A DNA stretch of 64,000 nucleotides from an uncultured Bacteroidales bacterium (GTDB lineage: Bacteria > Bacteroidota > Bacteroidia > Bacteroidales > Paludibacteraceae), in NCBI GenBank assembly GCA_946544705.1, contig CAMNMN010000011.1, positions 2,408-66,407 on the forward strand. The letters run 5' to 3'. The notes under the pieces are model-generated. The model was not told where the DNA came from. It did no database searches and saw nothing but the letters and a program-made list of their open reading frames with translations. Positions 6,910 through 54,379 of this stretch are shown here, in pieces; the first letter of the stretch is position 1; every line of letters begins with the position of its first letter. The position numbers were made by a program, and so were the translations under genes.

Positions 6910-6929
6910 TGAATAATGATTAATGAATA
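6904..6929. repeat. AT-rich word array at a gene boundary
   Basis: attaatgaataatgattaatgaatat (units ATTAATGA/ATAATG), overlapping the stop of the M49 gene. Confidence 0.6.
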
Positions 6930-10885: not shown

Positions 10886-12343
10886 TTAACGGATATTATA
10901 TATCTTCGCTTCGCCACCTTGAACATCCAGATGGTTATATGGTTCAGAGGGGAATACGAGGTTGGTCATCGCCCAAGCGCCTTCGGCATCAAACGCCTCG
11001 ATCGAGCAATGGTCGATAAAGAGAAGGACATGGTACGTATCGCGTTTGACGAAGAGCGGAGCGACCGTGCGTGCTGCAAAATCATGTGAGAAAGAGCAAT
11101 CGCCCGAAGCAGTACGATCCATGGAGAACGTGCGGCGGTGCACATCCAGGTTCATGACCACTTTCTCCCCTTTGTCGTTGGAGAGAGTGATGAGTGCATC
11201 CTGTTTGCCGTCCAACTCCAACTCAACGATACCGGCATCCGGCAGGTAGCGGGTCTCTTCTCCACGAAGCGCCAGAGACTCCGGAGAAGGTACAGAACCC
11301 AGATGATACTCGCCTTCGTCATCCGTAAAGAGGAAGAGATCGCGGGCGATAGTATTCTGCGAACGGAAAGCAACGGTAGGAACGACTTCTGCGTACTGCC
11401 AGTTAGACATCCATCCCATGGCTACCAAACGGCCATCAGGGGAGTTATGGAAAGTGAAAGTGGAGTAATTGTCCTTGCCGTAGTCGAGCCAAAGGGAAGC
11501 CCCTTCCCTACCTTCCCCTTGAGGGGCAGGAGTAAAGACTTTTCCGTCCCAATCGCCTATGAAATACTGGGTAGCAGAGCCACCGAACGGTCCACCGGGG
11601 TTGATGGAAACCAACAAAACATATTTATCCTCGGTCATTGTGCATTGTGAATTGTGCATTGTGAATTTCAACAACTCGGGACACTCCCAGACACCGCCGT
11701 GTGCACCGAGATCTTTTCCAAAGGACGAGAGATAAGTCCACTCCTTGAGGTTCGACGAGCCATAGAAACGGATCTCCTGCTGGCATGCAAGTGCCATCGT
11801 CCATTGGTTCGATTGCTCATCCCAGAACACTTTCGGATCCCGGAAGTCTGCGATGTCGCCCATGAGTACGGGGTTGCCTTCGTACTTGGTGAAGGTATAA
11901 CCACCGTCGGTGCTATACGCGATAGACTGATGTTGCCCGATACGCTCGGACTGGGTGAAGATAGCTACGATAGCGTTCTCTCCAAAGCCGGCGGTGTTGT
12001 TTTTGTCAATGACTGCCGAACCGGAGAAGATCGTTCCGATAGAATCCGGATATAGTACAATGGGGTGTTCCTCCCAAGTGAGGAGGTCGGTTGAAGTGAC
12101 ATGTCCCCAGTGCATCGGGCCCCAGGTACACCCGAAGGGATTGTGCTGGTAGTAGAGGTGCCATACGCCGTTCGCCTCGTCGTAGAACATACCATTCGGG
12201 TCATTCATCCAGTTCGCCTCAGGCGTATGGTGATAGACCGACCGGAAAGGCTCGTCGGTAGGATGAGAAACCGGAGTTCTATCGGTACATCCGGCAACAA
12301 AAAGAAGCATGATAGCGCAAAACGCAAGAGAAAGATGTCTCAT
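10886..12343 (-). CDS. GH32 beta-fructofuranosidase / exo-fructanase, lipoprotein
   Basis: WMNDPNGMFY, FRDPKVFW and WECPEL (the three GH32 signature blocks). I start at MRHLSLAFCAIMLLFVAGC (ATG 12343), not the track's 12466. Confidence 0.9.
   Translation of the reverse strand: MRHLSLAFCAIMLLFVAGCTDRTPVSHPTDEPFRSVYHHTPEANWMNDPNGMFYDEANGVWHLYYQHNPFGCTWGPMHWGHVTSTDLLTWEEHPIVLYPDSIGTIFSGSAVIDKNNTAGFGENAIVAIFTQSERIGQHQSIAYSTDGGYTFTKYEGNPVLMGDIADFRDPKVFWDEQSNQWTMALACQQEIRFYGSSNLKEWTYLSSFGKDLGAHGGVWECPELLKFTMHNSQCTMTEDKYVLLVSINPGGPFGGSATQYFIGDWDGKVFTPAPQGEGREGASLWLDYGKDNYSTFTFHNSPDGRLVAMGWMSNWQYAEVVPTVAFRSQNTIARDLFLFTDDEGEYHLGSVPSPESLALRGEETRYLPDAGIVELELDGKQDALITLSNDKGEKVVMNLDVHRRTFSMDRTASGDCSFSHDFAARTVAPLFVKRDTYHVLLFIDHCSIEAFDAEGAWAMTNLVFPSEPYNHLDVQGGEAKIYNIR
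11494..11533 (-). repeat. Degenerate G-rich hairpin-type element, in frame in GH32 (encodes PQGEGREGAS)
   Basis: Coding strand reads gCCCCTcaAGGGGaaggtagggaaggggcttccc. It shares the CCCCT/AGGGG palindrome and GGTAGG core with the 7097, 8661 and 32498 copies. Confidence 0.4.
11636..11667. repeat. Tandem heptamer array CATTGTG x4, in frame inside GH32
   Basis: cattgtg cattgtg aattgtg cattgtg aatt, encoding (minus strand) KFTMHNSQCTM right after the WECPEL catalytic block. Confidence 0.8.
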
Positions 12344-23731: not shown

Positions 23732-23764
23732 TTCAATTAAAAATTTAAAATTAAAAATTACGAA
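23732..23764. repeat. AT-rich heptamer-word spacer (rnfE/rnfA)
   Basis: ttcaattaaaaatttaaaattaaaaattacgaa fills the whole intergenic gap. It shares attaaaaattacgaatta with the spacers at 25986 and 27366. Confidence 0.75.
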
Positions 23765-25985: not shown

Positions 25986-26021
25986 AATTAAAAATTAAAA
26001 ATTACGAATTAAAAATTTAAA
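25986..26021. repeat. AT-rich heptamer-word spacer (rnfC/rnfD)
   Basis: aattaaaaattaaaaattacgaattaaaaatttaaa. Confidence 0.75.
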
Positions 26022-27365
26022 TTACTTTTTCGCAGCAGCGCGCTCCCGGAGGATAGCGCCCACTTTGGCCTTGCCCGGGCGAATGCCGTCGAGCAGGCGT
26101 CGATGCGCAGGACAAGTGAAGACGCAGCAACCGCAGTCGATACAGTCCATGATATCATGTTTCTCGAGTTCTTCCCACATCTCGAGCTGCGCCATGCGCT
26201 GTAGCAGATAGGGCTCGAGTCCCATCGGGCAAGCCTGAACGCACTTACCGCAGCGGATACAGTTCTCTTCCTCCGGACGGATACTCTCCGCCTCGGTCAT
26301 GAAGAGCAGGCCGGAGAGACGTTTATTAGCCGGCATGCCTTCTATATGATCCATGGCGCGCCCCATCATAGGACCTCCGCCGATGATCTTGCCGGTATCC
26401 ACAGGCACGCCTCCGGCGAGGGTGATCACGTCCTCTATCGGCGTACCGAAGCGGACGGAGTAGTTGCCCGGTTTGGCAACATTCTTGCCGGTGACGGTCA
26501 TGACGCGGGAGATCAGCGGTTTATTCTTCTGCACCGCCTCATAGACGGCATAGACAGTAGCCACATTGTCCACGACGGCCCCTACCTCGATAGGGAGAGC
26601 TCCGGAGGGCACCTGGCGACCGATACAAGCGTCGATGAGCTGTTTCTCACCGCCCTGCGGGTAGCGCAGTTTGAGCGGCATGACCTCGATACCCAGCGAA
26701 GCATTCGCCAGTTTGGTCATATGCTCAATTGCGTCGGGTTTGTTATTCTCGATACCGATGATAGCTCTCTCGACACCGAGCGCTTTCTTGAGGATCTGGA
26801 TACCGATGATCAGTTCCTCTCCATGCTCGAGCATGAGCTGGTGGTCGCAGGTGAGATAGGGTTCGCACTCCACACCGTTGACGATGAGGACCTCCGCTTT
26901 CTTGCCCGGAGGCGGGAGCAGTTTGACATGGGTAGGGAAGCAAGCGCCTCCGAGACCTACGATACCTGCCGCTGCGATCTTGTCAATGATCGCTTTGGGC
27001 TCGAGGGTGCACTGGCGCGCTATATCGGGCGTGCGGTCGATCTCGGGCAGCCATTCGTCTCCCTCCACATCGATGAAGATCGCCTGTCCGGGTGCGCCCC
27101 AGGCGTCGGTCCATTCCCCTATCTTGGTGACTGTACCGCTTACCGGCGAGCAGATATTAGCACTAACGAACCCGCCGGCTTTGGCCAGCAGTTCGCCTAC
27201 TTTTACTTTCGCTCCGACAGCGACGACAGCCTGTGCGGGTGCGCCGATATGCTGGACAAGCGGGATGATAGCCTGCTTGGGCAGCGGGCACTCGGTGATA
27301 GGCCGGTGTGCGGAGAATTGTTTGTTGTCATGCGGATGAACTCCGCCTATTTTAAATGTACGCAT
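26022..27365 (-). CDS. rnfC: Rnf complex subunit C
   Basis: GLGGACFPTHVKL nucleotide-binding block and two 4Fe-4S motifs, CIRCGKCVQACP and CIDCGCCVFTCP. Confidence 0.93.
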   Translation of the reverse strand: MRTFKIGGVHPHDNKQFSAHRPITECPLPKQAIIPLVQHIGAPAQAVVAVGAKVKVGELLAKAGGFVSANICSPVSGTVTKIGEWTDAWGAPGQAIFIDVEGDEWLPEIDRTPDIARQCTLEPKAIIDKIAAAGIVGLGGACFPTHVKLLPPPGKKAEVLIVNGVECEPYLTCDHQLMLEHGEELIIGIQILKKALGVERAIIGIENNKPDAIEHMTKLANASLGIEVMPLKLRYPQGGEKQLIDACIGRQVPSGALPIEVGAVVDNVATVYAVYEAVQKNKPLISRVMTVTGKNVAKPGNYSVRFGTPIEDVITLAGGVPVDTGKIIGGGPMMGRAMDHIEGMPANKRLSGLLFMTEAESIRPEEENCIRCGKCVQACPMGLEPYLLQRMAQLEMWEELEKHDIMDCIDCGCCVFTCPAHRRLLDGIRPGKAKVGAILRERAAAKK

Positions 27366-27406
27366 TCTAAATTAAAAATTAAAAATTAAGAATTACGAAT
27401 TGTGAA
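27366..27406. repeat. AT-rich heptamer-word spacer (rnfB/rnfC)
   Basis: tctaaattaaaaattaaaaattaagaattacgaattgtgaa. Confidence 0.75.
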
Positions 27407-27823
27407 TTAGGATTTTTGCGCCATGGCGATGTTGAGCGGGAACGCGGCTCTCGGTGTAGCGAGCGCTTTGATTTTCTCTGCGATAACAGGATCGAAACCT
27501 TTCTTGTCTCCGTTTTGCTCAGCGGGCGCTTGCTCCTGTGCGTCGGCAGGGGTTAAGATCAGTTTCACTTGTTCCATGGTGGGTTCGCCTCCTACGGGGC
27601 ACGCCAATCCATCGATACCACCGGCTTTGACGCATGCCTCCGCAAAATTGCGGCATCCGGCAAAACCGCATCCGCCGCAGTTGGCACCCGGCAGCGCAGC
27701 CGCCACGAGGTCAATGCGCGGATCTTCTTCCACTTTGAAGAACAGGCTGACAACATACAGCAGGATAGCTGCGAGTAAGGCTGTCACGCCCAGAACTCCC
27801 ATTGAAATCAGGATTAAATTCAT
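27407..27823 (-). CDS. rnfB: Short RnfB-like subunit: TM helix plus N-terminal Fe-S cluster domain only
   Basis: LPGANCGGCGFAGCRNFAEACV..ACPVGGEPTMEQV matches the N-terminal part of RnfB/RsxB. The ORF stops at 138 aa, and no CxxCxxCxxxCP ferredoxin motifs follow. Confidence 0.75.
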   Translation of the reverse strand: MNLILISMGVLGVTALLAAILLYVVSLFFKVEEDPRIDLVAAALPGANCGGCGFAGCRNFAEACVKAGGIDGLACPVGGEPTMEQVKLILTPADAQEQAPAEQNGDKKGFDPVIAEKIKALATPRAAFPLNIAMAQKS

Positions 27824-28437: not shown

Positions 28438-31035
28438 ATGCCCCGAACTACATCCAAACTAAGCAATATGCAGGCAGATGCCCCCCGTCGCGCCATCAAG
28501 GTGGAGAAGCCGAGCGTGTGGGAATCGGTGCGTTTGTTTCTGAACGCCCGGGAGACCCGTATGGTGTGCGGGATCGTGCTGCTGACCTTTTCCGTGATCG
28601 CCCTGCTGGCGTATGTGAGTTATCTTTTCACCGGTCCGTCCGATCAGTCGATACTGTCCCTTTCCCGTCCGGAGCGCATCGCTAACCGCGAGGCGATACG
28701 GAATCTGTTAGGTTTGCCGGGCGCCGTGCTGGCGCGGTTTATGATCGACGGCAGTTTCGGATTTATGTCCGTGCTGCTGGCGTTGATGATCGGTGCATAC
28801 GCTTTGCGTATCATGCATGTTTTCCGGGATATACCGGCGCTGAAGATATTCCTCTGCGGTACCTTTGTGGTGCTATGGGGTTCTGTGACGCTGGGTTTTG
28901 CGCACAACATGGTGCACCAGACGGGTGTGTTCCTCTGGGGCGGCGCTTTCGGCGAAGCTTCGGCACGATGGATGGTCAGTTATCTGAACGAATTGGGGAC
29001 GGGCATTATTCTGGTAGTGGCGCTGACGATATTTCTGGTAGTGAGCGATGAGAGGTTTATCGACCGATGCAAGTCTTTCGGGATCTGGTTCGCGGGTTTA
29101 TTCAAGAAGAAGGCGCCGAAAGAGCCGGACGAGGATACGGAGGTGACGATCGATCTGCCGATAGACGGCGGAGAGCCTACCCCAGGAAGTTCTCTGAAAG
29201 GAGGGGAGATGAGCAGTGAGGGTGACGAAGTGACCTTCACGATAGAGCCGATAGGGGGCGAAGGCGACGAGCCGGAGATAGCGATCGAGGAGCCTACCGA
29301 GCCGGAGGCGCCGGAGTTGCCGGACGACGGAGGTCCTGCGGACGGTACGCTGACGGATCTGCTGAAGGAAGAAAGCAAGAGACCCGAAGAGGAAAAGCCC
29401 AAGGATCCGGATCTGGAGATAGAGGATGTGGCGGAGGATGAGTTATACACCAAGGACCCGGACAAGCTATTAGAGAAACTCGGTCCGTACGACCCGCGCA
29501 AAGATCTGGAGTTCTACAAGTTCCCGAGTCTGGGGTTGCTGAAAGTATATGACAACGAGGCCGCTCCGGTGATCGACGAAGAGGAGCAGCGGGCGAACGG
29601 CGCACGTATCGTGACGACGCTTCGCAACTATGGCATAGAAATTGATAGCATCAAAGCGACGGTCGGACCGACCGTGACGCTCTATGAGATAGTGCCGAAA
29701 GCCGGTATCCGCGTAGCGAAGATCCAGGCGCTGGAGAACGATATCATGATGAGTCTGAGCGCTACCGGTATCCGTATTATTGCTCCGATGCCGGGAAAGG
29801 GAACAATCGGTATCGAGGTGCCGAACGAGAAGCCGCAGGTGGTAAGCATGCACTCGGTGATCGCTTCCAAGAGGTTTCAGGAAGAGACGAAGATGAAGCT
29901 GCCGATCGCCTACGGACGGACGATCACGAACGAGGTGTTCATGTTCGACTTAGCGAAGACGCCGCACTTGCTGGTAGCCGGTGCGACAGGAACAGGTAAG
30001 TCCGTAGCCATCAACGCGATCATCACTTCGCTGCTGTACAAGAAACATCCGGCGGAGCTGAAGCTGGTGATGGTCGATCCGAAGATGGTAGAGTTCGCTC
30101 CGTACAAGCCGCTGCTGAAACATTTCTTAGCGGCGATGCCGGACACCGATCCGGAGCAGATCGTCATCACCGACTGCGACAAGGTGGTGAACACATTGAA
30201 TTCGCTGGTGATCGAGATGGAGAACCGGTACAAACTGCTGATGGATGCGGGCGTGCGCAATCTGGAGGACTACAACGACAAGTTCGTCCGCAGACGGCTG
30301 AATCCCAACAAGTTGGTGGGCGACAGTCTGCATCACCAATACCTGCCCTATATCGTCATCATCATCGACGAGTACGGCGATTTCATCATGCAGGCGGGCA
30401 AGCAGGTGGAGACGCCTATCGCCCGTATCACGCAGAAAGCGCGCGCCGTAGGAATGCACATGATCCTGGCAACCCAGCGTCCGAGTGTCAATATTGTGAC
30501 GGGTGTGATCAAGGCGAATATCCCTACGCGTATTGCGCTTCGCACGCAGAGTGTGATTGACAGCCGTACGGTGCTGGATGCGAAGGGAGCGGAGCAGTTG
30601 ATCGGCCGCGGCGACAGCCTCTATGCCGGCAACGCCAGCATCACCCGTGTACAGTGCGCGTTCGTCGATACACCGGAGGTGGACGAGATAGTGAAGCATA
30701 TCTCCAAACAGCAACGCTATACCGAACCGTATCAGTTGCCGGAGTATGTAGGCGAAGGCGGCGAAGGGGAAGCTTTGGCTCCTGGCAGCGTGGATATGAA
30801 ACGGCTCGATCCGATGTTCGCGGACGTAGCGAGGTACGTGGTGACCAAACAGGAAGGTTCGACGAGCCGTCTGCAGCGTGCGTTCGAGATCGGTTATAAC
30901 CGCGCCGGCAAACTGTCCGACCAACTGGAGGCTGCCGGCATCGTGGGCCCGAACAAAGGTCCGAAGGGAAGGGACGTGCTGATACAAGATTTGGACCAAC
31001 TGGAGAAACTGCTGGAGGAACTGGGAGTCAGGTAA
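28438..31035 (+). CDS. ftsK: DNA translocase FtsK/SpoIIIE
   Basis: N-terminal TM helices, an acidic/Pro-rich linker, Walker A GATGTGKS, Walker B IIIDEYGD, and a gamma winged-helix domain (STSRLQRAFEIGYNRAGKLSDQLE). Confidence 0.95.
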   Translation: MPRTTSKLSNMQADAPRRAIKVEKPSVWESVRLFLNARETRMVCGIVLLTFSVIALLAYVSYLFTGPSDQSILSLSRPERIANREAIRNLLGLPGAVLARFMIDGSFGFMSVLLALMIGAYALRIMHVFRDIPALKIFLCGTFVVLWGSVTLGFAHNMVHQTGVFLWGGAFGEASARWMVSYLNELGTGIILVVALTIFLVVSDERFIDRCKSFGIWFAGLFKKKAPKEPDEDTEVTIDLPIDGGEPTPGSSLKGGEMSSEGDEVTFTIEPIGGEGDEPEIAIEEPTEPEAPELPDDGGPADGTLTDLLKEESKRPEEEKPKDPDLEIEDVAEDELYTKDPDKLLEKLGPYDPRKDLEFYKFPSLGLLKVYDNEAAPVIDEEEQRANGARIVTTLRNYGIEIDSIKATVGPTVTLYEIVPKAGIRVAKIQALENDIMMSLSATGIRIIAPMPGKGTIGIEVPNEKPQVVSMHSVIASKRFQEETKMKLPIAYGRTITNEVFMFDLAKTPHLLVAGATGTGKSVAINAIITSLLYKKHPAELKLVMVDPKMVEFAPYKPLLKHFLAAMPDTDPEQIVITDCDKVVNTLNSLVIEMENRYKLLMDAGVRNLEDYNDKFVRRRLNPNKLVGDSLHHQYLPYIVIIIDEYGDFIMQAGKQVETPIARITQKARAVGMHMILATQRPSVNIVTGVIKANIPTRIALRTQSVIDSRTVLDAKGAEQLIGRGDSLYAGNASITRVQCAFVDTPEVDEIVKHISKQQRYTEPYQLPEYVGEGGEGEALAPGSVDMKRLDPMFADVARYVVTKQEGSTSRLQRAFEIGYNRAGKLSDQLEAAGIVGPNKGPKGRDVLIQDLDQLEKLLEELGVR

Positions 31036-31089
31036 GGTACTAAGGGACTAAGTACCAAGTACAAAGTACAAGGGACGAGGTACAAAGAC
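31033..31089 (+). repeat. GTAC-word array filling the ftsK/lolA-like spacer
   Basis: taaggtactaagggactaagtaccaagtacaaagtacaagggacgaggtacaaagac, starting at the ftsK stop codon. Confidence 0.85.
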
Positions 31090-31094
31090 TAAAT

Positions 31095-31682
31095 ATGAAA
31101 GGGTTATTAATTATATTATCGGTTTTGACGAGTTTCTTAACGAATCTCGAGCAGAAGACTTTGAAGTCGCAGTTTACCGTCACGGTGAGTGAAGAGGTGA
31201 ATGCACCGATGAATTTTCCCGGCGAGATCATCATGCAGGGGAGTAAGTTCCGTCTGGAGATGTTCGACCTCGAGGCGGCGTACGACGGCAAGACGATGTA
31301 TATGTACTCCGCCCAGACCGATGAGTTGACGCTCTCGAACCCTACGGAGCAGGAGTTGGTGGAAGCGAATCCGCTGCTGTACGCCAAGGCGCTGGTAGGA
31401 GTTTGTAACATAACGGAGCGGGCGACGCAGGACGGTTCGCAGACGATAGTGACGCTGACGCCGAAGGACCAGAGTATCGGTATCAACCGCTTTGTGCTGA
31501 AGGTGCGAAACAGCGACCTGATGCCGCTGTCGGTGGAGATCAAAGAGGGCAAAAAGACTTCGACACTGAAGATGAAAGAGCCGAAATTTATACAAAGTGA
31601 CAAAGTACAAAGTACGAAGGATGATTCAATTTTCAGCCTTCAAGCCGATAAGAATACATACATTAACGATATGAGATTTTAG
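31095..31682 (+). CDS. lolA: LolA-like outer-membrane lipoprotein carrier protein
   Basis: Signal peptide, about 195 aa, sits immediately after ftsK (conserved ftsK-lolA synteny). Typical block GSKFRLEMFDLEAAYDGKTMYMYS. Confidence 0.65.
   Translation: MKGLLIILSVLTSFLTNLEQKTLKSQFTVTVSEEVNAPMNFPGEIIMQGSKFRLEMFDLEAAYDGKTMYMYSAQTDELTLSNPTEQELVEANPLLYAKALVGVCNITERATQDGSQTIVTLTPKDQSIGINRFVLKVRNSDLMPLSVEIKEGKKTSTLKMKEPKFIQSDKVQSTKDDSIFSLQADKNTYINDMRF
31592..31620 (+). repeat. GTAC-word array in frame near the C-terminus of the LolA-like protein
   Basis: acaaagtgacaaagtacaaagtacgaagg, encoding SDKVQSTKD. Confidence 0.75.
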
Positions 31683-31686
31683 CAAT

Positions 31687-32652
31687 ATGAATAGAGTAAA
31701 ATGTTTGATAATAGGTTCCGGTCCTGCGGGATACACGGCTGCTATCTATGCGAGCCGTGCTAATCTGGAGCCGGTGCTGATAGAAGGTCCGCAGCTTGGC
31801 GGGCAGTTGACGACCACGACGGAGGTGGAGAATTTTCCGGGTTATCCGGACGGCGTAGAGCCGTTCACGATGATGGACGACATGCGCCGTCAGGCAGAAC
31901 GCTTCGGCACAAAATTCGTGTCGGGTATTGTGACCAAGGTAGATTTCTCTGTCAGTCCGAAGAAAGTATGGGTGGAAGATACGGAGGAATATGAAGCGGA
32001 TGCAGTGATCATTGCTACGGGCGCGAGTGCCAAATACCTCGGCATTGAGAGCGAGCGGACGTACAAAGGCCGCGGCGTGAGTGCTTGCGCCACCTGCGAC
32101 GGTTTCTTCTATCGCAAGAAAACGGTAGCGGTAGTAGGCGGCGGAGACACCGCCTGCGAAGAGGCCAATTATCTGGCGGGGCTCTGCGAGAAGGTCTATA
32201 TGATTGTTCGCAAACCCTATCTTCGTGCTTCGGAGATCATGCAGCAACGCGTGCTGAACAACCCGAAGATAGAGGTGCTTTTTGAGCATAATACGCTGCA
32301 GTTGACGGGTGAAGGCAAGGTACAGGGAGCAGACCTGGTGTACCGCAAAGGCGAGCCGGACGAAGCGATGCGGCATATAGCCATCGACGGTTTCTTCCTG
32401 GCTATCGGTCATCATCCGAACACAGAGTTATTCAAGGACTATGTAGCCCGCGACGCTGAGGGGTACATCATCGTAGATGGAGCCTCTACGCAATGTTTCT
32501 CCCTTCCCTTTAGGGAGGGGCAAGGGGTAGGCCTTCCCGGTGTCTTTGCCGCCGGAGACTGCGCCGATCCGCATTATCGCCAGGCTATCGTCGCTGCCGG
32601 AAGCGGTGCCAAAGCGGCTATCGAAGCAGACAAATATATCAAGAGTTTGTAA
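31687..32652 (+). CDS. trxB: Thioredoxin-disulfide reductase
   Basis: GSGPAGYTAAIYASRA (FAD), redox-active CATCDG, GGGDTACEEA (NADPH), GVFAAGD. Confidence 0.95.
   Translation: MNRVKCLIIGSGPAGYTAAIYASRANLEPVLIEGPQLGGQLTTTTEVENFPGYPDGVEPFTMMDDMRRQAERFGTKFVSGIVTKVDFSVSPKKVWVEDTEEYEADAVIIATGASAKYLGIESERTYKGRGVSACATCDGFFYRKKTVAVVGGGDTACEEANYLAGLCEKVYMIVRKPYLRASEIMQQRVLNNPKIEVLFEHNTLQLTGEGKVQGADLVYRKGEPDEAMRHIAIDGFFLAIGHHPNTELFKDYVARDAEGYIIVDGASTQCFSLPFREGQGVGLPGVFAAGDCADPHYRQAIVAAGSGAKAAIEADKYIKSL
32498..32534 (+). repeat. G-rich hairpin element, copy 3, inserted in frame in trxB
   Basis: tctCCCTTCCCtttaGGGAGGGGcaaggggtaggcct. About 28 of 35 positions match the 8661 copy by hand alignment, with stem-preserving changes. 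Encodes SLPFREGQGVGL just before GVFAAGD. Confidence 0.8.
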
Positions 32653-33033: not shown

Positions 33034-33074
33034 GCGTTAAATTGTTAAATTGTTAAACCGTTAAACTATTATCA
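33034..33074. repeat. Octamer-word array spacer
   Basis: gcGTTAAATTGTTAAATTGTTAAACCGTTAAACtattatca between rsfS and ftsH. Confidence 0.7.
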
Positions 33075-49191: not shown

Positions 49192-50697
49192 ATGAAAAAG
49201 ACGATTCTTTTAGTATTTTCCATATTTTTGCTCGCGGGTGCGAGTGCGTTGAACGCGGATAACAGAAGCGCTGCCAAAGCGGATGGAGTATCGTCCAAGG
49301 CCGGTGTGCCTGCGGAATGCGAAGATGTCATGTTGCAGGCATTCTATTGGGACAGTTACAAGGCTAAGACGAGCACGGACAGCAAGTTCGGTCGTACGAA
49401 ATGGATTGATTTGCTCAAAGACACGGCGGCCATCAATGCCAATTTTGACGTCGTATGGTTTCCGCCAAGTGCCGGTCCGACGGGTTGCGGCGTGGGTTAC
49501 TCCGCCAAGCAGTATAGCAATCAGGAGAGCGACTGGGGTACCAAAACGGCGTTGAGCAACCTGATTAACGCGCTGCATAAAGGCAATACCAAGGTGCTGG
49601 CGGATGTAGTGCTGAACCATCGCGGTAACCTGTCGAATTGGTGCAATTTCTGGACGGATAACTTCGGCAGTTACGGTACGTTTACCTTGACGCAGAAAGA
49701 GATCTGCCGTAACGACGAGGGCTTTACGAATACGAAATCCTCTTGTTACGGCGCGGACTATACAGACCGCGGAGCGAACGATACGGGCGATAATTTTGAT
49801 GGTGCACGCGATTTGGATCATCAGAGCGAGGTGGTACAAAACTGGTCGAAGGCTTATACGCAATGGTTGTTGAACACGATGAAATACGACGGATTCCGGT
49901 ACGATATGACCTTGGGTTTCCATGGTCGGTATCTGAAGATGTACAACGAAGCGGCTCAGCCGTATATGTCCGTTTCGGAGTTGTGGCAAAGTATAAATCG
50001 TCAGAAACAGCATTTGGAAGAGTGCGAATATAATACGATGGTGTTTGATTTCCAGGCGAAATACTCGATGAAGGGGATCGTAACCGGTTCGTACGGCAAG
50101 TTGAATGCAAACAAGGCGTTTGAGGGGCTGCGCAAGCATGGTCTGGAGCGTTATTCGGTGACGTTCATCGACAACCATGATACGTTTGACCGCGGGACGG
50201 CGTACGGCGATAACCAGTTTACCCCGACTACTGATCTGACGACAACGACGAACAAAGATTACGTTTTGCAGGCGAGTGCGTATATGCTGATGATGCCCGG
50301 TGTACCGTGTGTGTTCTATCCGCATTGGGCGAGTTACAAGGAGGAAATCAATGAGTTGATTGCCGTTCGCAAGCGTGTAGGAATTCATAGTGAGTCGGAC
50401 GTGCTGGAGGAGACGAGCGGACAGTATCAATATAGCGCAACGGTTCAGGGACATCGCGGCAAGGTGATCGTGCGTGTAGGCAAATACCGCAGTAAGACGC
50501 AGCCGGAAGGGTATGAGTTGGCGGTAGAAGGCGGAGACAGAGGTAATTACACCGTATATGTTAGCATGGATCAGCAGGGCGTGGAGGAAGTTGATCTTCC
50601 GGAGACCGGTGTTCGAAAGATTATTTACAACGGGCAGGTGTATTTCCTCCGCGAAGGCAAGACGTATACCTTAACCGGAAGTGAAATAAAAGAATGA
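49192..50697 (+). CDS. Secreted GH13 alpha-amylase with the shared C-terminal tail
   Basis: Signal peptide. GH13 regions DVVLNHRG, DGFRYDMTLG, VSELWQ, FIDNHDT, and an MLQAFYWDSY N-terminus. Ends KIIYNGQVYFLREGKTYTLTGSEIKE. Confidence 0.9.
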   Translation: MKKTILLVFSIFLLAGASALNADNRSAAKADGVSSKAGVPAECEDVMLQAFYWDSYKAKTSTDSKFGRTKWIDLLKDTAAINANFDVVWFPPSAGPTGCGVGYSAKQYSNQESDWGTKTALSNLINALHKGNTKVLADVVLNHRGNLSNWCNFWTDNFGSYGTFTLTQKEICRNDEGFTNTKSSCYGADYTDRGANDTGDNFDGARDLDHQSEVVQNWSKAYTQWLLNTMKYDGFRYDMTLGFHGRYLKMYNEAAQPYMSVSELWQSINRQKQHLEECEYNTMVFDFQAKYSMKGIVTGSYGKLNANKAFEGLRKHGLERYSVTFIDNHDTFDRGTAYGDNQFTPTTDLTTTTNKDYVLQASAYMLMMPGVPCVFYPHWASYKEEINELIAVRKRVGIHSESDVLEETSGQYQYSATVQGHRGKVIVRVGKYRSKTQPEGYELAVEGGDRGNYTVYVSMDQQGVEEVDLPETGVRKIIYNGQVYFLREGKTYTLTGSEIKE

Positions 50698-50708
50698 AAG
50701 GGAGGACG

Positions 50709-52544
50709 ATGAAGAGGTTTTTAAATTTAATAGTGTTAGCGTGCGCTTGCGCGAGTGTGTGGGCGAGCAACTATGGTATTTTGGTGAACGGCAATACCTA
50801 TTTTGCCGGAGAACCGGCGGGTGAGTATGAGGGATTTCAGCAGTACTTGGCGCATGTGCAGGTGTCTAATGGCGACCAGTTCCAGTTGTATGACGCGGAA
50901 AATCAAGCGGCATGGGCTGTAGATCTGAATACTTATTCTGTAGCAGGATTCACGCGTTCGGGCGATCATTATGTATCGAGCGTGAGTGGCTGCTATGATT
51001 TTTATATCAAACTGAAATGGGAACAAGATGAGTTGTATATAGGCAATGGTTCGAATTGCGGAGCCGGCGAAGATATACATGATATCTATACGGGCGCCGT
51101 TCCTCGCCAGTGTGAAGCGGTGATGATGCAGGCTTTTTATAACGAGTCGTATAGTGCTACTTCGCCGGGTGTGAGCGAGTATGGCGATACCAAATGGACT
51201 ACTTTGACGCCTCAAGCAACCGAGTTGGGCCGGTATTTCGACTATATATGGTTGCCGCCGAGTGCGTACGGAGACGGTGCAGGGTACCATCCGAAACAAT
51301 ACAGCAACCAGAACTCCAACTGGGGCACGCGCGCAGAACTGGATGCGCTGATAAGTGCGTTGCATAACGCGGGAACCAAAGTGGTGGCGGACATCGTGAT
51401 CAACCACTGCGCGAACAAGAGTACTTGGTGCGATTTCTACGAGATGGATTTCGGCGAATACGGCGTGTTCCATCCGGATGAGACGTATATCTGTTCGAAT
51501 GACGAGGTGAATGCCGAATGGAACCGACCGACGGCAACGAGCGATGGTTCAGGCGCTTGTTGGGGAACGGCTTCCGGTAGTCCGGATGACGGAGATAACT
51601 GGGACGGCGCACGCGACTGGAGTCATGACAAAGTGTATGTGCAGCAGATGTTCATCGCTTATCTGCAATGGATGCGCAATGTGATGCACTATGACGGCTT
51701 CCGCTATGACAAAGGCGACGGTTTCAATAACTGGCATCATTATAACTATAACAAACATGCGAAGCCGGAGATCGCTTTCATGGAGAGTTATAACGGTACC
51801 GATGCTATCCAGGGACAGATTAACGGCGCGCAGGGTGATCTGATGGCTCTTGATTTTGATCTCAAATGGCATGTGTTCAATTCGTTTGCCGGCTGGGATT
51901 ACAGCCGCGGTCGCGGAGACTGTTTGATGAGTCGCGGTGACGGAAAACATTCGGTTACGTTCATTGAGAGTCACGACTGGTTCCTTCGGCCGGATAACGA
52001 GAATGAGTTCGGCGGACGCGGCAATTCCATGACTCCGGCGCTGAAAGGTCGTCTGATGCAGGCGAACGCTTTTCTGCTGTCCATGCCGGGTGTGCCGTGT
52101 GTGTTCTATCCGCATTGGGCGAAATACAAAGCCGATCTGAAACCGATGATTATTGCTCGCAAATGGGCAGGCGTACACAGCGAAAGCGAAGTGCGGGATG
52201 AGTATTCGACCGCTACGGGTTATCAGGCTACGGTAGTAGGAAAGAACGGATGGCTCATCCTGTGTCTGGGAGATAGAGCGAACGGGCAAGGTTTCGGTCC
52301 GGACTATCAGTTGGCGGCAAGTAACTACAACACGCAAGACGGACATAATGAGAGTTTCGAGATTTGGGTGAATAGTTCGAAGGAGAAACCGAATCCCGAA
52401 CTCAATACGGGTATAGAACAGCCTACCTCCGACTCCTCTATACAGGGAAGAGGGGAGAAATTCGTCAAGGACGGCCAACTCTATATTCGCTGTGGCGAAC
52501 AGGTGTATGATATAATGGGACAACAAATAAATAAAATACGATGA
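50709..52544 (+). CDS. Secreted GH13 alpha-amylase with the unassigned ~100-aa N-terminal module and the shared C-terminal tail
   Basis: Signal peptide MKRFLNLIVLACACASVWA (an alternative ATG at 50694 overlaps the upstream stop). DIVINHCA, DGFRYDKGDG, FMESYNG, FIESHDW. Ends KFVKDGQLYIRCGEQVYDIMGQQINKIR. Confidence 0.88.
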   Translation: MKRFLNLIVLACACASVWASNYGILVNGNTYFAGEPAGEYEGFQQYLAHVQVSNGDQFQLYDAENQAAWAVDLNTYSVAGFTRSGDHYVSSVSGCYDFYIKLKWEQDELYIGNGSNCGAGEDIHDIYTGAVPRQCEAVMMQAFYNESYSATSPGVSEYGDTKWTTLTPQATELGRYFDYIWLPPSAYGDGAGYHPKQYSNQNSNWGTRAELDALISALHNAGTKVVADIVINHCANKSTWCDFYEMDFGEYGVFHPDETYICSNDEVNAEWNRPTATSDGSGACWGTASGSPDDGDNWDGARDWSHDKVYVQQMFIAYLQWMRNVMHYDGFRYDKGDGFNNWHHYNYNKHAKPEIAFMESYNGTDAIQGQINGAQGDLMALDFDLKWHVFNSFAGWDYSRGRGDCLMSRGDGKHSVTFIESHDWFLRPDNENEFGGRGNSMTPALKGRLMQANAFLLSMPGVPCVFYPHWAKYKADLKPMIIARKWAGVHSESEVRDEYSTATGYQATVVGKNGWLILCLGDRANGQGFGPDYQLAASNYNTQDGHNESFEIWVNSSKEKPNPELNTGIEQPTSDSSIQGRGEKFVKDGQLYIRCGEQVYDIMGQQINKIR

Positions 52545-54379
52545 AAAAAACAGGATTGATTTTAGTGGCCATGTTGTGCTGTGCGATGGGATGGGCAGCA
52601 AGTTATGGCATTTTGGTGAACGGGAAGATGTATTTCGCCGGAAGTTTAGTGGATGAGTTTGAGGGTTTTACCCAGTATCTGGCACATGTACAGGTGTCGA
52701 AGGGAGATTACTGCCAGCTCTATGACGCGGATAACAAAGCGGCTTGGGCAGTGGCGTTGAATACCTATTCGGTACCCGGATTTACGTATGATGCCTCGGC
52801 GAACCGCTATACGGTTTCGGTGGATGGTTGCTATGATTTCTACATCAAGTTGAAGTACGAGCAGGATGAGTTGTATATCGGTGACGGCTCTAATTGCGGT
52901 GAAGGTCAGGACATCAGTGGCGGCGGAGAGATAGACCCGGGTTATTCGGGTTCGGCTCCGGCACAATGTCCGGATGTGATGCTGCAGGCATTCTATTGGG
53001 ACAGTTATAACGGATCGCTGCCGACGACCAAATACGGTCGTACCAAATGGATAGACCTGGTCAACGGTAACAGCGGTTCGAGTGCTGAAGAAATGGGGCA
53101 ATGGTTCGATATGGTATGGTTACCGCCTATGTCGGCCGGTAGCGGTACGGGATATCACCCGACCAACTACGGAAGACTGGAAAGCGATCGTGGAACAAAA
53201 TCCAAGTTGGTGGAACTGATAGAGATCCTGCATAAGAACGGTGCACGCGTGATAGCGGATATTGTGATCAACCATGCGGATGCGCAAGAGGGATGGTGTA
53301 ACTTCAAGTCGTATGACTTTGGTTCGTACGGTAAGTTTACACCCGACGGGTCGTATATCTGCAGCACGGACGAGATGAATACATCTGCTCCTACGACGGC
53401 CTGTCGCGGTTATGCTACGGGGGCCGCGGACGACGGTTACGGCGACGAGGCGAACTATGCCGCGTCACGCGACTGGGATCATACGAATGCTGAGGTGCGC
53501 GATATGTTCAAGGCATATCTCAAATGGATGCGTAATGAAGTCAAAGTGGACGGTTTCCGCTATGACTACTGCAAGGGATATCACAACAGCCATATCAATG
53601 AGTATAACCGCGCGGCTGAGGCTTATTTCAGTGTCATGGAATACTGGGACGGTAATGTGAATACGCTCCAGAGCCGTCTGAGCGATGCCGGATGGAATAC
53701 CGCTACCTTCGATTTTGCCACCAAATATACGGCGTTCAATGACGGTATAGCAGCTGACAACTATTGGAAACTGCAGGGCGCCGGTCTGCCGGGTGCAGGC
53801 AAGGCACGTTACGCCGTGACGTTTATCGACAGCCATGACGGTTTCCAGCGCAATGACAATGAGTTCTGCGGCAACGGCAACTCCATGACGATTTGTAAGG
53901 ACAAGGTGCTCATCTGCAATGCTTATATGCTGTCGATGCCGGGTGTGCCGTGTGTGTTCTGGCCGCACTGGGTGACCTTCAAGGACCAAATAAAGAAGAT
54001 GATCAACGCCCGCTATAAAACAGGCGTACACAGCGAGAGCAGTGTGACCGACGAATCGGTAGGAGACGGCTACTACAAGGCTACTATCAACGGTACGAAC
54101 GGTTCGATCCGTCTGTTGTTAGGTCCCAACTCGGGGTATAACTCGACACCGTCGGGTTACACGTTAGCAGTAAAAGGAACCAACTACGGCGTATATTACA
54201 AGTCGGACGGAACGCGCGGAGACAAGAACACCGAGCGCAAAGACCGCACGCAGGGCATCGAAGAGATCACCTCCGGATCTTCCCTCCAAGGGAAAGGGGA
54301 GAAGTTCATCCAGGATGGTCAGTTGCTGATCCGGGTGGGTGAACAGGTGTTTGATGCGTTCGGACGCAGAGTGAAGTAA
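52541..54379 (+). CDS. Secreted GH13 alpha-amylase, paralog with the same N-terminal module and C-terminal tail
   Basis: ATGA start/stop overlap with the upstream gene. DIVINHAD, DGFRYDYCKG, VMEYWDG, FIDSHDG. Ends KFIQDGQLLIRVGEQVFDAFGRRVK. Confidence 0.9.
   Translation: MKKTGLILVAMLCCAMGWAASYGILVNGKMYFAGSLVDEFEGFTQYLAHVQVSKGDYCQLYDADNKAAWAVALNTYSVPGFTYDASANRYTVSVDGCYDFYIKLKYEQDELYIGDGSNCGEGQDISGGGEIDPGYSGSAPAQCPDVMLQAFYWDSYNGSLPTTKYGRTKWIDLVNGNSGSSAEEMGQWFDMVWLPPMSAGSGTGYHPTNYGRLESDRGTKSKLVELIEILHKNGARVIADIVINHADAQEGWCNFKSYDFGSYGKFTPDGSYICSTDEMNTSAPTTACRGYATGAADDGYGDEANYAASRDWDHTNAEVRDMFKAYLKWMRNEVKVDGFRYDYCKGYHNSHINEYNRAAEAYFSVMEYWDGNVNTLQSRLSDAGWNTATFDFATKYTAFNDGIAADNYWKLQGAGLPGAGKARYAVTFIDSHDGFQRNDNEFCGNGNSMTICKDKVLICNAYMLSMPGVPCVFWPHWVTFKDQIKKMINARYKTGVHSESSVTDESVGDGYYKATINGTNGSIRLLLGPNSGYNSTPSGYTLAVKGTNYGVYYKSDGTRGDKNTERKDRTQGIEEITSGSSLQGKGEKFIQDGQLLIRVGEQVFDAFGRRVK

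Follow-up and report, generated by a model that had tools for sequence, protein, structure and literature searches.

The window, the whole 64-kb stretch of DNA that was analysed, comes from a rumen-type Bacteroidales bacterium and contains a trxB gene with an in-frame insert that belongs to a dispersed repeat family, each unit of which has a C-run/G-run hairpin with an 8-bp stem, followed by a 2-nt spacer and by a G-rich tail with GTAGG. Taken alone, the insert is an ordinary member of this hairpin-plus-G-tail family, and its presence is polymorphic among closely related trxB genes. What is new here is the occurrence of the same repeat as an inverted, tails-out bracket of DUF559 genes. Our favoured reading, held with modest confidence, takes the trxB insert for a lone terminal repeat of a selfish element that is associated with DUF559, the DUF559 protein being, as we infer, the agent of its mobilisation.

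A hairpin-plus-G-tail repeat in frame within trxB

The trxB product matches Pyr_redox_2 in Pfam (E 1.4e-45) and thioredoxin reductases in the PDB down to E 3e-87, and its redox motif CATC and the motifs GSGPAG and GGGD are intact. The insert, designated copy C (Table 1), is read in frame as FSLPFREGQGVGL and spans codons F271–L283, directly before P284-G-V-F-A-A-G-D. The first-pass annotation had placed it before the PGVFAAGD strand with the reading frame and catalytic motifs preserved, and this agrees with the present analysis in each respect; its estimate of roughly a dozen added residues is right as to an in-frame insertion, the net gain over the empty alleles being 11 codons (33 nt) and not 12. 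Alignment to PDB thioredoxin reductases shows a variable loop at this position in TrxB homologues generally, and this alignment was used to place the loop because an AlphaFold2 model from a 24-sequence alignment was too poor for that purpose (mean pLDDT 51). By sequence, the predicted tryptic peptides of the insert region are ...DGASTQCFSLPFR and EGQGVGLPGVFAAGDCADPHYR.

Table 1 Coordinates of trxB, its repeat copy and the other repeat copies in the window.
Feature	Position	Strand	Sequence or peptide	Basis
trxB, thioredoxin reductase, 321 aa, host of copy C	31687–32652	+		ORF list, Pfam, PDB matches
Copy C, hairpin-plus-G-tail repeat	32498–32534	+	tctCCCTTCCCtttaGGGAGGGGcaaggggtaggcct	Read directly from window DNA
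Copy C, 5' arm	32501–32508	+	CCCTTCCC	
Copy C, loop	32509–32512	+	TTTA	
Copy C, 3' arm	32513–32520	+	GGGAGGGG	
Copy C, spacer	32521–32522	+	CA	
Copy C, tail	32523–32534	+	AGGGGTAGGCCT	
EPSP-synthase-like/GT2 glycosyltransferase fusion, 618 aa, host of copies A, B and one decayed copy	6930–8786	+		Pfam
Copy A, in frame, EPSP-synthase-like N-domain of ORF 6930–8786	7096–7132	+	SPSCRKGSGVGL	Covariance model, 47.7 bits
Copy B, in frame, near C-terminus of ORF 6930–8786	8659–8695	+	SPSFRKGSGVGL	Covariance model, 54.5 bits
Decayed copy inside ORF 6930–8786	7836–7874	−	AYPLPEGEDEE	Weak covariance-model match, E 0.24
Decayed copy in FtsK linker	29173–29211	−	EPTPGSSLKGGE	Covariance model, E 0.057
Decayed copy, linker before C-terminal tail of amylase-like ORF 50694–52544	52419–52455	−		nhmmer E 0.003; covariance model 21.1 bits, E 2e-4
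Similar decayed copy, same position of paralogous ORF 52541–54379	54263–54304	−		By eye, no significant score

Copy C is identical to copy B (8661–8695) at 28 of 35 positions, copy A (7098–7132) and copy B share 32 of 35, and the remaining 35-mers of the window reach at most 23 of 35. The 22-nt core of copies A and B had no chance match in 100 shuffles. A covariance model trained on 37 sequences, mostly copies from other genomes, returned copy C as the top match in the window (56.2 bits, E 2e-15, model positions 1–37), a full-length consensus match that includes the 8-bp stem; as the three intact window copies are among the 37 training sequences, this score arises partly by construction, and the support independent of the model comes from the identity to copy B and from a pattern scan of other genomes. 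The insert had initially been taken for a diverged copy of elements at about 7097–7132 and 8661–8695, which the identity to copy B confirms.

Relative to copies A and B (CCCCTTCC/GGAAGGGG), the stem of copy C differs at one position by a change from T-A to C-G on both sides, and a second change has left one pair as a G.T wobble. The earlier statement that the stem differences keep the pairing intact holds in the main, though the stem is not preserved perfectly. Stem covariation was used in place of folding energies as evidence for the hairpin; the folding energy of copy C, a short C/G-biased sequence, is not unusual relative to shuffles. No Rfam family matched in the window at gathering thresholds, nor at E ≤ 1 in the loci with short and long forms of the repeat.

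The window holds three intact and about four decayed copies, all of them intragenic. The three intact copies share one reading frame, which is partly forced because copy C is stop-free in only three of the six frames. The ORF that hosts copies A and B combines PF00275 with PF13641, a fusion that is conserved in Paludibacteraceae at 520–671 aa. Copy A is common to P0121–P0124 and absent (YKKGEP) in P0130, P0136 and P0139. At the site of copy B, the closest relatives P0121–P0124 (91–96% identical) have EPRTS instead, with 39 nt in the window replacing 15 nt. The decayed copy in the same ORF has as its orthologue a strong copy at 10887–10923 (minus strand, 33.9 bits) of the relative L264, and the copy in the FtsK linker retains the 5' arm and the GGGGTAGGCTC tail with the middle replaced.

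Filled and empty alleles among relatives

The TrxB comparison covered 120 homologues among the matches listed, which are 79–95% identical to the window protein. Many of them lack the insert and read DGDSPRTNVPGVF at a length of 309–310 aa, or KDNSTQTNIPGVF in P0116; relatives whose TrxB is ~88–90% identical are among those without the element. The closest listed homologues, P0001–P0009, have the element in common, and filled and empty alleles coexist among homologues that are ~85–95% identical. The insertion is therefore lineage-specific, as had been supposed; the refuting case, in which orthologues throughout the family would have this segment encoded by unrelated DNA, is excluded. The filled allele is present in independent assemblies, P0002 alone representing 44 member sequences, and is stably inherited in the closest relatives, among which the insert peptide varies (R/K, Q/Y, G/E and G/A).

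Other relatives have unrelated 7-nt-periodic inserts or arrays in the same TrxB loop. The relatives L001 and L006 have the hairpin-plus-G-tail element in a second TrxB loop, where it is read in another frame as LPSLKGGDGGRL. The TrxB loop site is a hot spot, holding quite different inserts across relatives. Over 6958 nt the window and L001 share 97.5% identity, and all four indels of at least 6 nt between them are repeat elements. SNPs are clustered beside these indels, in agreement with a tract of conversion or recombination.

Between alleles with and without the insert the difference is a replacement and no clean insertion, for example 39 nt for 15 nt or 45 nt for 15 nt. Three filled/empty comparisons revealed no target-site duplication, and no conserved target was seen. 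The 'PRT' shared by empty sites of TrxB (SPRTN) and the GT2 protein (EPRTS) was weighed as a possible footprint or target site but proved unsupported, since STKTN or STQTN takes its place in other empty alleles.

The repeat family and its association with DUF559 genes

The 37-nt family consensus is nCTCCCTTCCC-TTYA-GGGAGGGG-NN-GGGGGTAGGCTY. A scan of species genomes with a pattern that fixed the 3' arm only and did not ask for the 5' arm yielded at least 120 matching stretches, most from rumen or gut Bacteroidales, and ~90 of the ~127 listed matches have a complementary upstream arm. The base opposite a G at the variable position of the 3' arm is C in 92 of 94 copies and that opposite an A is T in 15 of 16, the stem partner thus following the variable base in 107 of 110 copies. 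These matches and the copies in the window bear out the earlier view that the element is repeated beyond chance. Paludibacteraceae, Prevotellaceae and Bacteroidaceae of the rumen and gut commonly harbour the family, several MAGs have two to four matches each among the matches listed, and one locus (L104) has four copies in 8 kb, among housekeeping genes only. Near-identical 30-nt cores occur across phyla and in viral contigs.

The repeat unit is stop-free in three to five of the six frames. Stop-free stretches of 150 codons or more hold 38 of 75 copies deep in their interior, in all six frames and both orientations and in proteins unrelated to one another, such as a SpoU methylase with a copy in its inter-domain linker; the remaining copies include intergenic ones. 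A ~105-nt long form has the same conserved termini as the repeat and an interior unrelated to DUF559. A protein search with its peptides, a 100-aa concatenation of three frames, gave no match, and a metagenome scan for the interior found real copies only in L131, L133, L168 and L176 among the matches listed, the other matches being mostly chance matches to a 17-mer.

The first-pass annotation had likened the insert to Rickettsia palindromic elements, and the analogy holds as a way of working because copies of this repeat family as a rule reside in frame within genes. RPE-1 is ~100–150 nt long and restricted to Rickettsia, with neither a known endonuclease cassette nor a known sequence similarity to the present repeat, whereas the unit described here measures 37 nt (~105 nt in the long form), is found in Bacteroidales, has look-alikes among other phyla and makes up the ends of DUF559 cassettes. 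Membership was excluded on the grounds of the Paludibacteraceae-like host and the different unit length. Both kinds of element are short palindromes in frame within protein genes, including housekeeping genes, in either orientation and with several open frames, and both extend the host protein by peptide at its surface but do not destroy it (summarised in PMC3733652). The papers searched contain no earlier description of such an element for Bacteroidales, in line with the first-pass annotation.

Tails-out inverted pairs of the repeat bracket a DUF559 (PF04480) ORF in Prevotella (L108, E 1.9e-27) and in Chloroflexota (L109, E 1.3e-32) and a truncated DUF559 ORF in Bacteroidaceae (L058, E 5e-7). 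Apart from the arrays of a viral locus (L244), the only other tails-out pair with an interior of more than 200 nt is in L104 (233 nt, no DUF559). Variant repeats flank DUF559 in L065 (Prevotellaceae) and L125. The L108 cassette lies in frame inside a DegT aminotransferase and the L065 cassette in frame inside an epimerase/Polysacc_synt_C protein; Pfam searches of both loci detected host domains and DUF559 only, with no intron or intein splicing domains. Six plasmid DUF559 genes from four phyla, including cyanobacteria, Deinococcus and alpha-proteobacteria, were chosen by protein similarity alone. All six have C-run/G-run hairpins within ~150 nt, and four are bracketed by inverted pairs with arms of up to 40 nt and 100% complementarity. 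The sample of cassettes is small, with five in pattern-chosen loci and six from plasmids. The DUF559 link had not been seen in the first-pass annotation.

Short tails-out doublets that contain no DUF559 gene are found in L118, L025, L109, L208, L098 and L034. Singlets carry one tail only and would not be produced if the two ends of a cassette simply recombined with each other. A tblastn search of the 64-kb window and of the close relatives' loci detected no DUF559 gene, so that a cognate cassette in the genome with the trxB singlet is hypothetical.

We know of no biochemical function of DUF559 proteins on such repeats. DUF559 proteins are ~14-fold enriched among predicted targets of programmed inversion, that is, genes flanked by inverted repeats (PMC9881135). 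The Vsr/DUF559 clade includes a group I intron homing endonuclease, I-Bth0305I, so that a nuclease of this clade can act in homing (PMC3424549). The in-frame position of the nuclease ORF inside a conserved host enzyme in L108 and L065 is likewise reminiscent of homing endonucleases and inteins, and the junction-proximal SNP clusters resemble co-conversion tracts. The elements described here differ from inteins by the lack of splicing domains in the two loci, and from classical homing endonuclease genes by the hairpin inverted repeats at their ends and the abundance of gene-less miniatures. An intein or intron was rejected for the trxB insert, which at 33 nt is too short, has no Rfam match and keeps the frame and the stop-free state, as expected if translated.

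Origin of the insert and comparison with known systems

In the reading that we favour, small cassettes with a gene for DUF559, a Vsr-like PD-(D/E)XK endonuclease, have this repeat as their terminal inverted repeat, and the family would form a series from full cassettes of ~0.5 kb (repeat, DUF559, inverted repeat) through gene-less doublets of ~100 nt to singlets such as the trxB copy. The nuclease may cut at or near the repeats or their targets, and repair copied from a filled site would then spread whole or partial elements in a homing-like manner. The arrangement would be akin to the REP/RAYT 'REPtron' with a different enzyme. In trxB, the repeat would have entered an indel-tolerant surface loop in the ancestor of one Paludibacteraceae sub-lineage and would have persisted because it is stop-free in this frame and encodes a Gly/Pro/Ser-rich stretch, presumably translated as a flexible loop. 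Filled and empty alleles would subsequently have been exchanged between close strains by homologous recombination; ordinary allelic recombination also explains the allele replacements.

A broader proposal, which we put forward only tentatively, is that DUF559 proteins are the engines of an unrecognised class of cross-phylum selfish elements with hairpin/G-tail ends, an in-frame way of life and gene-less miniatures, both doublets and 37-nt singlets, scattered through coding sequences of rumen Bacteroidales, the trxB insert included. Elements inside host ORFs would then be in-frame domain insertions expressed via the host gene, the repeats would encode flexible linkers in several frames, and the 7-nt arrays in the same loops could be by-products of the same break-and-repair activity.

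If the favoured reading holds, it gives a concrete origin for a very common and unexplained C-run/G-run hairpin repeat of bacteria, the source of spurious PLP..GEG.GVG-like peptides in many annotations. The large DUF559 protein family would gain a testable role, that of a nuclease by which the repeats on either side of its gene are maintained or moved, parallel to REP/RAYT with a different catalytic fold. Housekeeping proteins of rumen Bacteroidales (TrxB, FtsK, an rRNA methylase and sugar-modifying enzymes) are routinely lengthened by mobile DNA at permissive loops, the length range of the Paludibacteraceae fusion family being one example. The practical reach extends to gene calling, orthology and protein clustering in metagenomes, and repeat positions serve as natural maps of insertion-tolerant sites in enzymes.

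The same alleles could have arisen with no dedicated enzyme, the unit spreading and staying uniform by ectopic gene conversion or template switching at arm-like sites together with homologous recombination of alleles, in permissive loops that accumulate whatever short repeats the genome produces. This account, which we consider unlikely, draws on the replacements that lack a target duplication, the SNP clusters at the junctions, the unrelated 7-nt arrays in the same loops and the partial resemblance of the 'empty' sites A (AAGAAGGGGGAG) and B (GAACCCCGCACCT) to one arm. However, it does not account for 30-nt cores that are almost the same in different phyla and in viral contigs, for the regularity with which tails-out pairs bracket an endonuclease gene or for the conserved termini of the long form.

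A REP/REPIN-type or IS200/IS605-derived origin, with the single-strand hairpin recognised and moved by an HUH tyrosine transposase (RAYT/TnpA) and DUF559 genes merely sitting where such repeats accumulate, would make the DUF559 association secondary; we judge it quite unlikely. The REP/REPIN-RAYT systems (Di Nocera et al. 2013, PMC3733652; Quentin et al. 2018, PMC6006769; Bertels & Rainey 2011, PMC3116915) also comprise imperfect palindromes of 20–40 nt with GTAG in an unpaired tag, singlets and inverted doublets, and a single-copy enzyme gene bracketed by inverted copies of a genome-dispersed repeat. The compensatory stem changes, the unpaired GTAG-containing tail and the inverted doublets of the present repeat conform to this pattern, RAYT subclasses 2.4 and 2.6 with atypical hairpins occur in Bacteroidetes (PMC6006769), and PMC3733652 describes REPs that sit in frame within genes of other phyla. 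In described REPs, however, the GTAG/GTGG tag is 0–2 nt 5' of the hairpin (PMC6006769; PMC3733652), whereas here it lies 3', 6–7 nt away, after the 2-nt spacer and four to five G. REPs are predominantly extragenic and about half of the copies here are intragenic, and the survey in PMC3733652 reports no GTAG REPs from Bacteroidetes. The gene bracketed by inverted copies is, in several phyla, the PD-(D/E)XK endonuclease DUF559 and not an HUH Y1 transposase. No RAYT was seen in ~1.7 Mb of loci, and the two HuH/Y1-like ORFs picked by regular expression (L004 4036–5169; L069) have no Pfam match.

We consider it very improbable that selection retains the insert for some role of its own, as an RNA or DNA structure (hairpin or G-quadruplex) that acts in translational pausing or mRNA stability or as a selected peptide loop of TrxB. 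Its stable inheritance in the closest relatives and the G.T wobble kept in the stem of 25 of 37 copies, which fits RNA pairing, agree with such a role, and the G-tail, taken by itself, is capable of a two-tetrad quadruplex (−7 kcal/mol). These points are set against the spread of copies over six frames, both orientations, unrelated proteins and intergenic positions, the variation of the insert peptide among close relatives, the many relatives whose TrxB has no insert, the ordinary folding energies and the lack of an Rfam match. A G-quadruplex as the main explanation was dropped, the hairpin being predicted to be more stable and to outcompete it.

The probability is practically negligible that the insert goes back to an ancestral TrxB loop, or to an error of assembly, and resembles the other two sequences by chance, for although TrxB homologues generally have a variable loop here, this reading is refuted by the DNA-level identity to a repeat family of over a hundred genomes (genome-scan matches and covariance-model score), the presence/absence polymorphism among near-identical genes and the recurrence of the same allele in independent assemblies.

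Coding MITEs (RU/ERIC, PMC2759123; Coxiella, PMC5896051; reviewed in PMC10969869) are likewise non-autonomous and intragenic, with open frames that add new peptide segments. They differ in being 100–170 nt or more in length, in having classical terminal inverted repeats and in being mostly IS-derived, whereas no target-site duplication or IS parent was seen here; membership among IS-derived MITEs was rejected, as a singlet consists of one hairpin and one tail with no duplication in the three comparisons. The cyanobacterial SDR elements of Elhai et al. (2008; cited in PMC5861425) are reportedly 21–27 nt long, with orthologous sites that differ by replacement and not by clean insertion. They belong to a different phylum and have different sequences, and to our knowledge no DUF559 link has been reported for them. 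They resemble the present family in that very small, apparently mobile repeats occur in the same genomes as heptameric tandem arrays (STRR; Calothrix, cited in PMC4692102).

A hairpin repeat read in frame within trxB

The segment in trxB belongs to a dispersed family of hairpin repeats. Direct reading of the plus strand found the quoted repeat sequence in an ORF identified as thioredoxin reductase by Pfam and by a PDB sequence search (E 3e-87). It is identical to 8661–8695 (in copy B) at 28 of 35 positions, and 7098–7132 (in copy A) matches 8661–8695 at 32 of 35; no remaining 35-mer of the window exceeds 23 of 35. A covariance model trained on 37 copies (the three from the window plus 34 from elsewhere) ranked the trxB copy first in a scan of the window (56.2 bits, E 2e-15), with copies B and A scoring 54.5 and 47.7 bits, respectively. 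The first-pass annotation, which described the segment as a diverged copy of the element at 7097–7132 and 8661–8695, was therefore correct.

The repeat unit consists of an 8-bp stem (CCCTTCCC / GGGAGGGG), a 4-nt loop, a 2-nt spacer and the tail AGGGGTAGGCCT. The proposal that base pairing survives the differences in the stem holds for one pair, which is altered on both sides relative to copies A and B, but less strictly for another, which is now a G.T wobble. The trxB copy is read as FSLPFREGQGVGL immediately N-terminal to PGVFAAGD. As had been claimed, the redox motif and the nucleotide-binding motifs of TrxB are undamaged. All three clear copies in the window are ORF-internal, sense-oriented and read in one frame (SPSCRKGSGVGL, SPSFRKGSGVGL and SLPFREGQGVGL), a common frame that is partly forced because the trxB copy is stop-free in only three of six frames. 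The segment is almost certainly an in-frame insertion of the repeat, and by itself it is an ordinary member of the family.

The trxB insert behaves like the Rickettsia palindromic elements with which it had been compared and like in-frame REPs (Di Nocera et al., PMC3733652), but it is a member of neither group. Host and sequence differ from the Rickettsia elements; relative to REPs, the GTAG tag of the present repeat stands on the opposite flank of the hairpin and at too great a distance, and the present family is not mainly extragenic.

Positions of repeats and associated features in the window and in loci from other genomes or contigs (L numbers)
Feature	Locus	Positions	Strand	Remark
trxB copy	window	32498–32534	+
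Thioredoxin reductase ORF	window	31687–32652
Copies A; B	window	7096–7132; 8659–8695
EPSP-synthase-like/GT2 ORF	window	6930–8786		618 aa
Decayed copies, amylase-like ORFs	window	52419–52455; 54263–54304	−
Period-7 arrays (examples)	window	3660–3683; 4913–4941; 6907–6929; 7371–7402; 7590–7644; 8102–8152; 11636–11667; 23735–23760; 25986–26025; 27369–27409; 31037–31087; 31591–31619; 57271–57289
8-nt tandem array	window	33036–33065		GTTAAATT, 3.8 copies
Long form	L127	1895–1995
Listed with long form	L127	1300–1352		52-nt-interior variant also in L127
Long form	L128	640–740
Long form	L131	664–769
Long form	L133	1648–1753
Long form	L168		−
Cassette in DegT/DnrJ/EryC1 aminotransferase	L108	221–1786	−
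Cassette in epimerase/Polysacc_synt_C protein	L065	2497–4182	−
Tails-in doublets	L079; L075	5934–6035; 5529–5632		39–43-nt interiors
ORF directly downstream of trxB	L004	4036–5169		377 aa

Insertion polymorphism at the trxB and copy B sites

The trxB segment is an insertion polymorphism within a variable loop. Among the best 120 homologues (79–95% identical, Paludibacteraceae MAGs where named), TrxB ranges from 309 to 387 aa, and four groups, confirmed at the DNA level in nine relatives, occur at the site: insert-free proteins (DGDSPRTNVPGVF, or KDNSTQTNIPGVF in homologue P0116), those with the G-rich element of the window, those with unrelated A/T-rich inserts of 7-nt periodicity (e.g. QSPITNNQSPIL, QMVNGKCTNGTL and KCQMSNDKYQII) and longer versions. 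The element is present in the closest relatives (P0001–P0009) and some others, and many of these 120 lack any insert, which bears out a lineage-specific insertion. The net gain of the filled over the empty allele is 33 nt, or 11 codons, against the roughly dozen added residues proposed earlier.

A second TrxB loop, C-terminal to KV[DE]F, is as variable as the first, and in the relatives L001 and L006 it contains the G-rich element in a different frame (peptide LPSLKGGDGGRL). L001 shares 97.5% identity with the window across 6958 nt and ~99.5% away from indel spots. Between the two, every indel of at least 6 nt is a repeat: the second-loop G-rich element, a pair of heptamer arrays and a single 8-nt unit. 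Seven SNPs cluster in the 27 nt that precede the site-1 element. Within the species, the presence or absence of the element therefore looks like a swap of long-standing alleles through recombination or conversion. At the copy B site, relatives that are 91–96% identical have EPRTS, with 39 nt replacing 15 nt, and the element is found at the same place in relatives that are merely 70–82% identical. No target-site duplication was seen at any filled/empty site compared.

The ORF containing copies A and B encodes an EPSP-synthase-like domain fused to a GT2 glycosyltransferase. This fusion is kept across Paludibacteraceae at lengths of 520 to 671 aa, a spread due to about eight indel hot spots filled by repeats.

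Spread of the family and its DUF559 cassettes

A scan of one genome per species, with the 3′ arm and tail as the sole fixed parts of the pattern, matched at least 120 stretches; the element is repeated elsewhere far beyond chance. The 22-nt core common to copies A and B gave no chance matches in 100 shuffles. Among the matches listed, the complementary 5′ arm was present in ~90 of ~127, and the main carriers were rumen/gut Prevotella, Prevotellaceae, Paludibacteraceae and Bacteroidaceae. In 107 of 110 copies, the partner base of the 5′ arm pairs with whichever base stands at the variable 3′-arm position. The same architecture occurs in Chloroflexota, Nostoc, Calothrix, Sphingomonadales and other alpha-proteobacteria, and Latescibacterota. 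The full hairpin plus tail was found in 17 of 85 pattern matches on viral contigs, and therefore the repeats are also carried by putative phage or prophage DNA. The viral contigs include L182, L197, L208, L216, L226, L244, L246, L249, L257 and L259, with arrays of the repeat in L244.

The family's notable points are its residence within genes and its link to DUF559 (PF04480, a Vsr-like PD-(D/E)XK endonuclease). In a gene-context set of 75 copies (loci with G+C ≤56%, mostly Bacteroidales, the three window copies counted), 38 are embedded by 90 nt or more in stop-free stretches of 150 codons or longer (16 sense and 22 antisense, with every one of the six frames represented), 13 occupy the 5′ edge of a long ORF and 24 are in intergenic regions or short ORFs. 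A SpoU rRNA methylase has two tandem copies within its inter-domain linker. About four additional copies in the window are decayed, all of them ORF-internal. One is in the linker of FtsK, another is within the EPSPS-like/GT2 ORF, and two paralogous amylase-like proteins each have one preceding the C-terminal tail. The last two occupy the matching point of both paralogues, which suggests that the insertion is older than the gene duplication and is now linker sequence.

Inverted pairs of the repeat are nearly all arranged with their G-rich tails pointing outwards, and their interiors form a graded series. Gene-free doublets have 17–83-nt interiors (L118, L025, L109, L208, L098 and L034), a 287-nt interior in Bacteroidaceae L058 encodes a truncated DUF559 (E 5e-7), and full DUF559 domains fill interiors of 403 nt in Prevotella sp. 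L108 (PF04480 E 1.9e-27) and 511 nt in Chloroflexota L109 (E 1.3e-32). The only other pair with an interior above 200 nt, viral L244 arrays aside, is that of L104 (233 nt, DUF559-free). In Prevotellaceae L065 and the alpha-proteobacterium L125, DUF559 is flanked by variant C-run/G-run hairpins. In this small sample, DUF559 cassettes have inverted copies of the repeat as their two ends. The entire cassette lies in frame within its host gene in L108, where the DUF559 domain splits the Pfam DegT/DnrJ/EryC1 match in two, and a cassette is likewise in frame in L065; both host enzymes are predicted to carry an additional nuclease domain. Doublets in Sphingomonadaceae L079 and L075 have the reverse, tails-in orientation.

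An independent set of six DUF559 genes from four phyla, taken from 33 plasmid records found by protein similarity alone, had C-run/loop/G-run hairpins no more than ~150 nt away in every case, and four were bracketed by inverted pairs; in Pseudanabaena, the 40-nt arms are 100% complementary (CCCCCAGAATTGGGGG then ATTTAGGGGGC). The Vsr/DUF559 clade contains a group I intron homing endonuclease (PMC3424549), and DUF559 proteins are ~14-fold enriched among predicted programmed-inversion targets, that is, inverted-repeat-flanked genes (PMC9881135). Judged by title, none of 25 papers mentioning DUF559 is about repeats or mobility. The trxB repeat is probably the unit that brackets DUF559. The arrangement is similar to the REP/RAYT ‘REPtron’ in that an enzyme gene lies between inverted copies of a genome-dispersed repeat, but the enzyme of the REPtron is an HUH transposase and that of the present cassettes a PD-(D/E)XK nuclease.

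Whether DUF559 mobilises the repeat is more doubtful, and we put it forward tentatively. The nuclease would break DNA at repeats or targets, and repair off a filled template would spread whole or partial elements, which would give rise to replacement-type junctions and flanking SNP clusters; the SNP clusters flanking elements resemble co-conversion. Repeats would persist in genes, being open in several frames and encoding Gly/Pro/Ser-rich linkers, and only insertion-tolerant loops would retain them, which would account for unrelated inserts at the same sites. The weak points of this mechanism are that no DUF559 gene is present in the window or the close relatives' loci, that the cassettes sampled are few, that it leaves the step from two-ended cassettes to singlets with one tail unexplained, and that the long form and the heptamer arrays fall outside its account.

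Long form and neighbouring repeats

The long form (~105 nt) has the termini of the 37-nt unit. Its 70-nt interior is structured, forming hairpins of its own that show one compensatory change (GGAGC..GCTCC to GGAGT..ACTCC). Stop-free in four of six frames, it occurs in frame in the TrxB genes of two relatives and an Lpd-like gene, and in the reverse orientation within a TrmO-like ORF. The remaining copy of five, in L133, lies inside a 171-codon stop-free stretch.

Period-7 tandem arrays make up ~20 of the 53 TRF rows for the window, many in frame within ORFs, and two of the four indels of at least 6 nt against the 97.5%-identical relative. In relatives they occupy the TrxB and GT2 loops also used by the G-rich element and lengthen the TrxB N-terminus (MVNEQMVNEQ.., MTNNQSPITN..). 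The 8-nt array between an RsfS-like ORF and ftsH has one extra unit in the close relative L001. In the relative L004, the ORF downstream of trxB has no Pfam match; it contains an HuH-like motif (PDHLHA), a Y-like motif (YVDMNPQRLA) and a short internal repeat present twice (SFSSVAPTVSREKYQENT). A similar ORF is present in L069.
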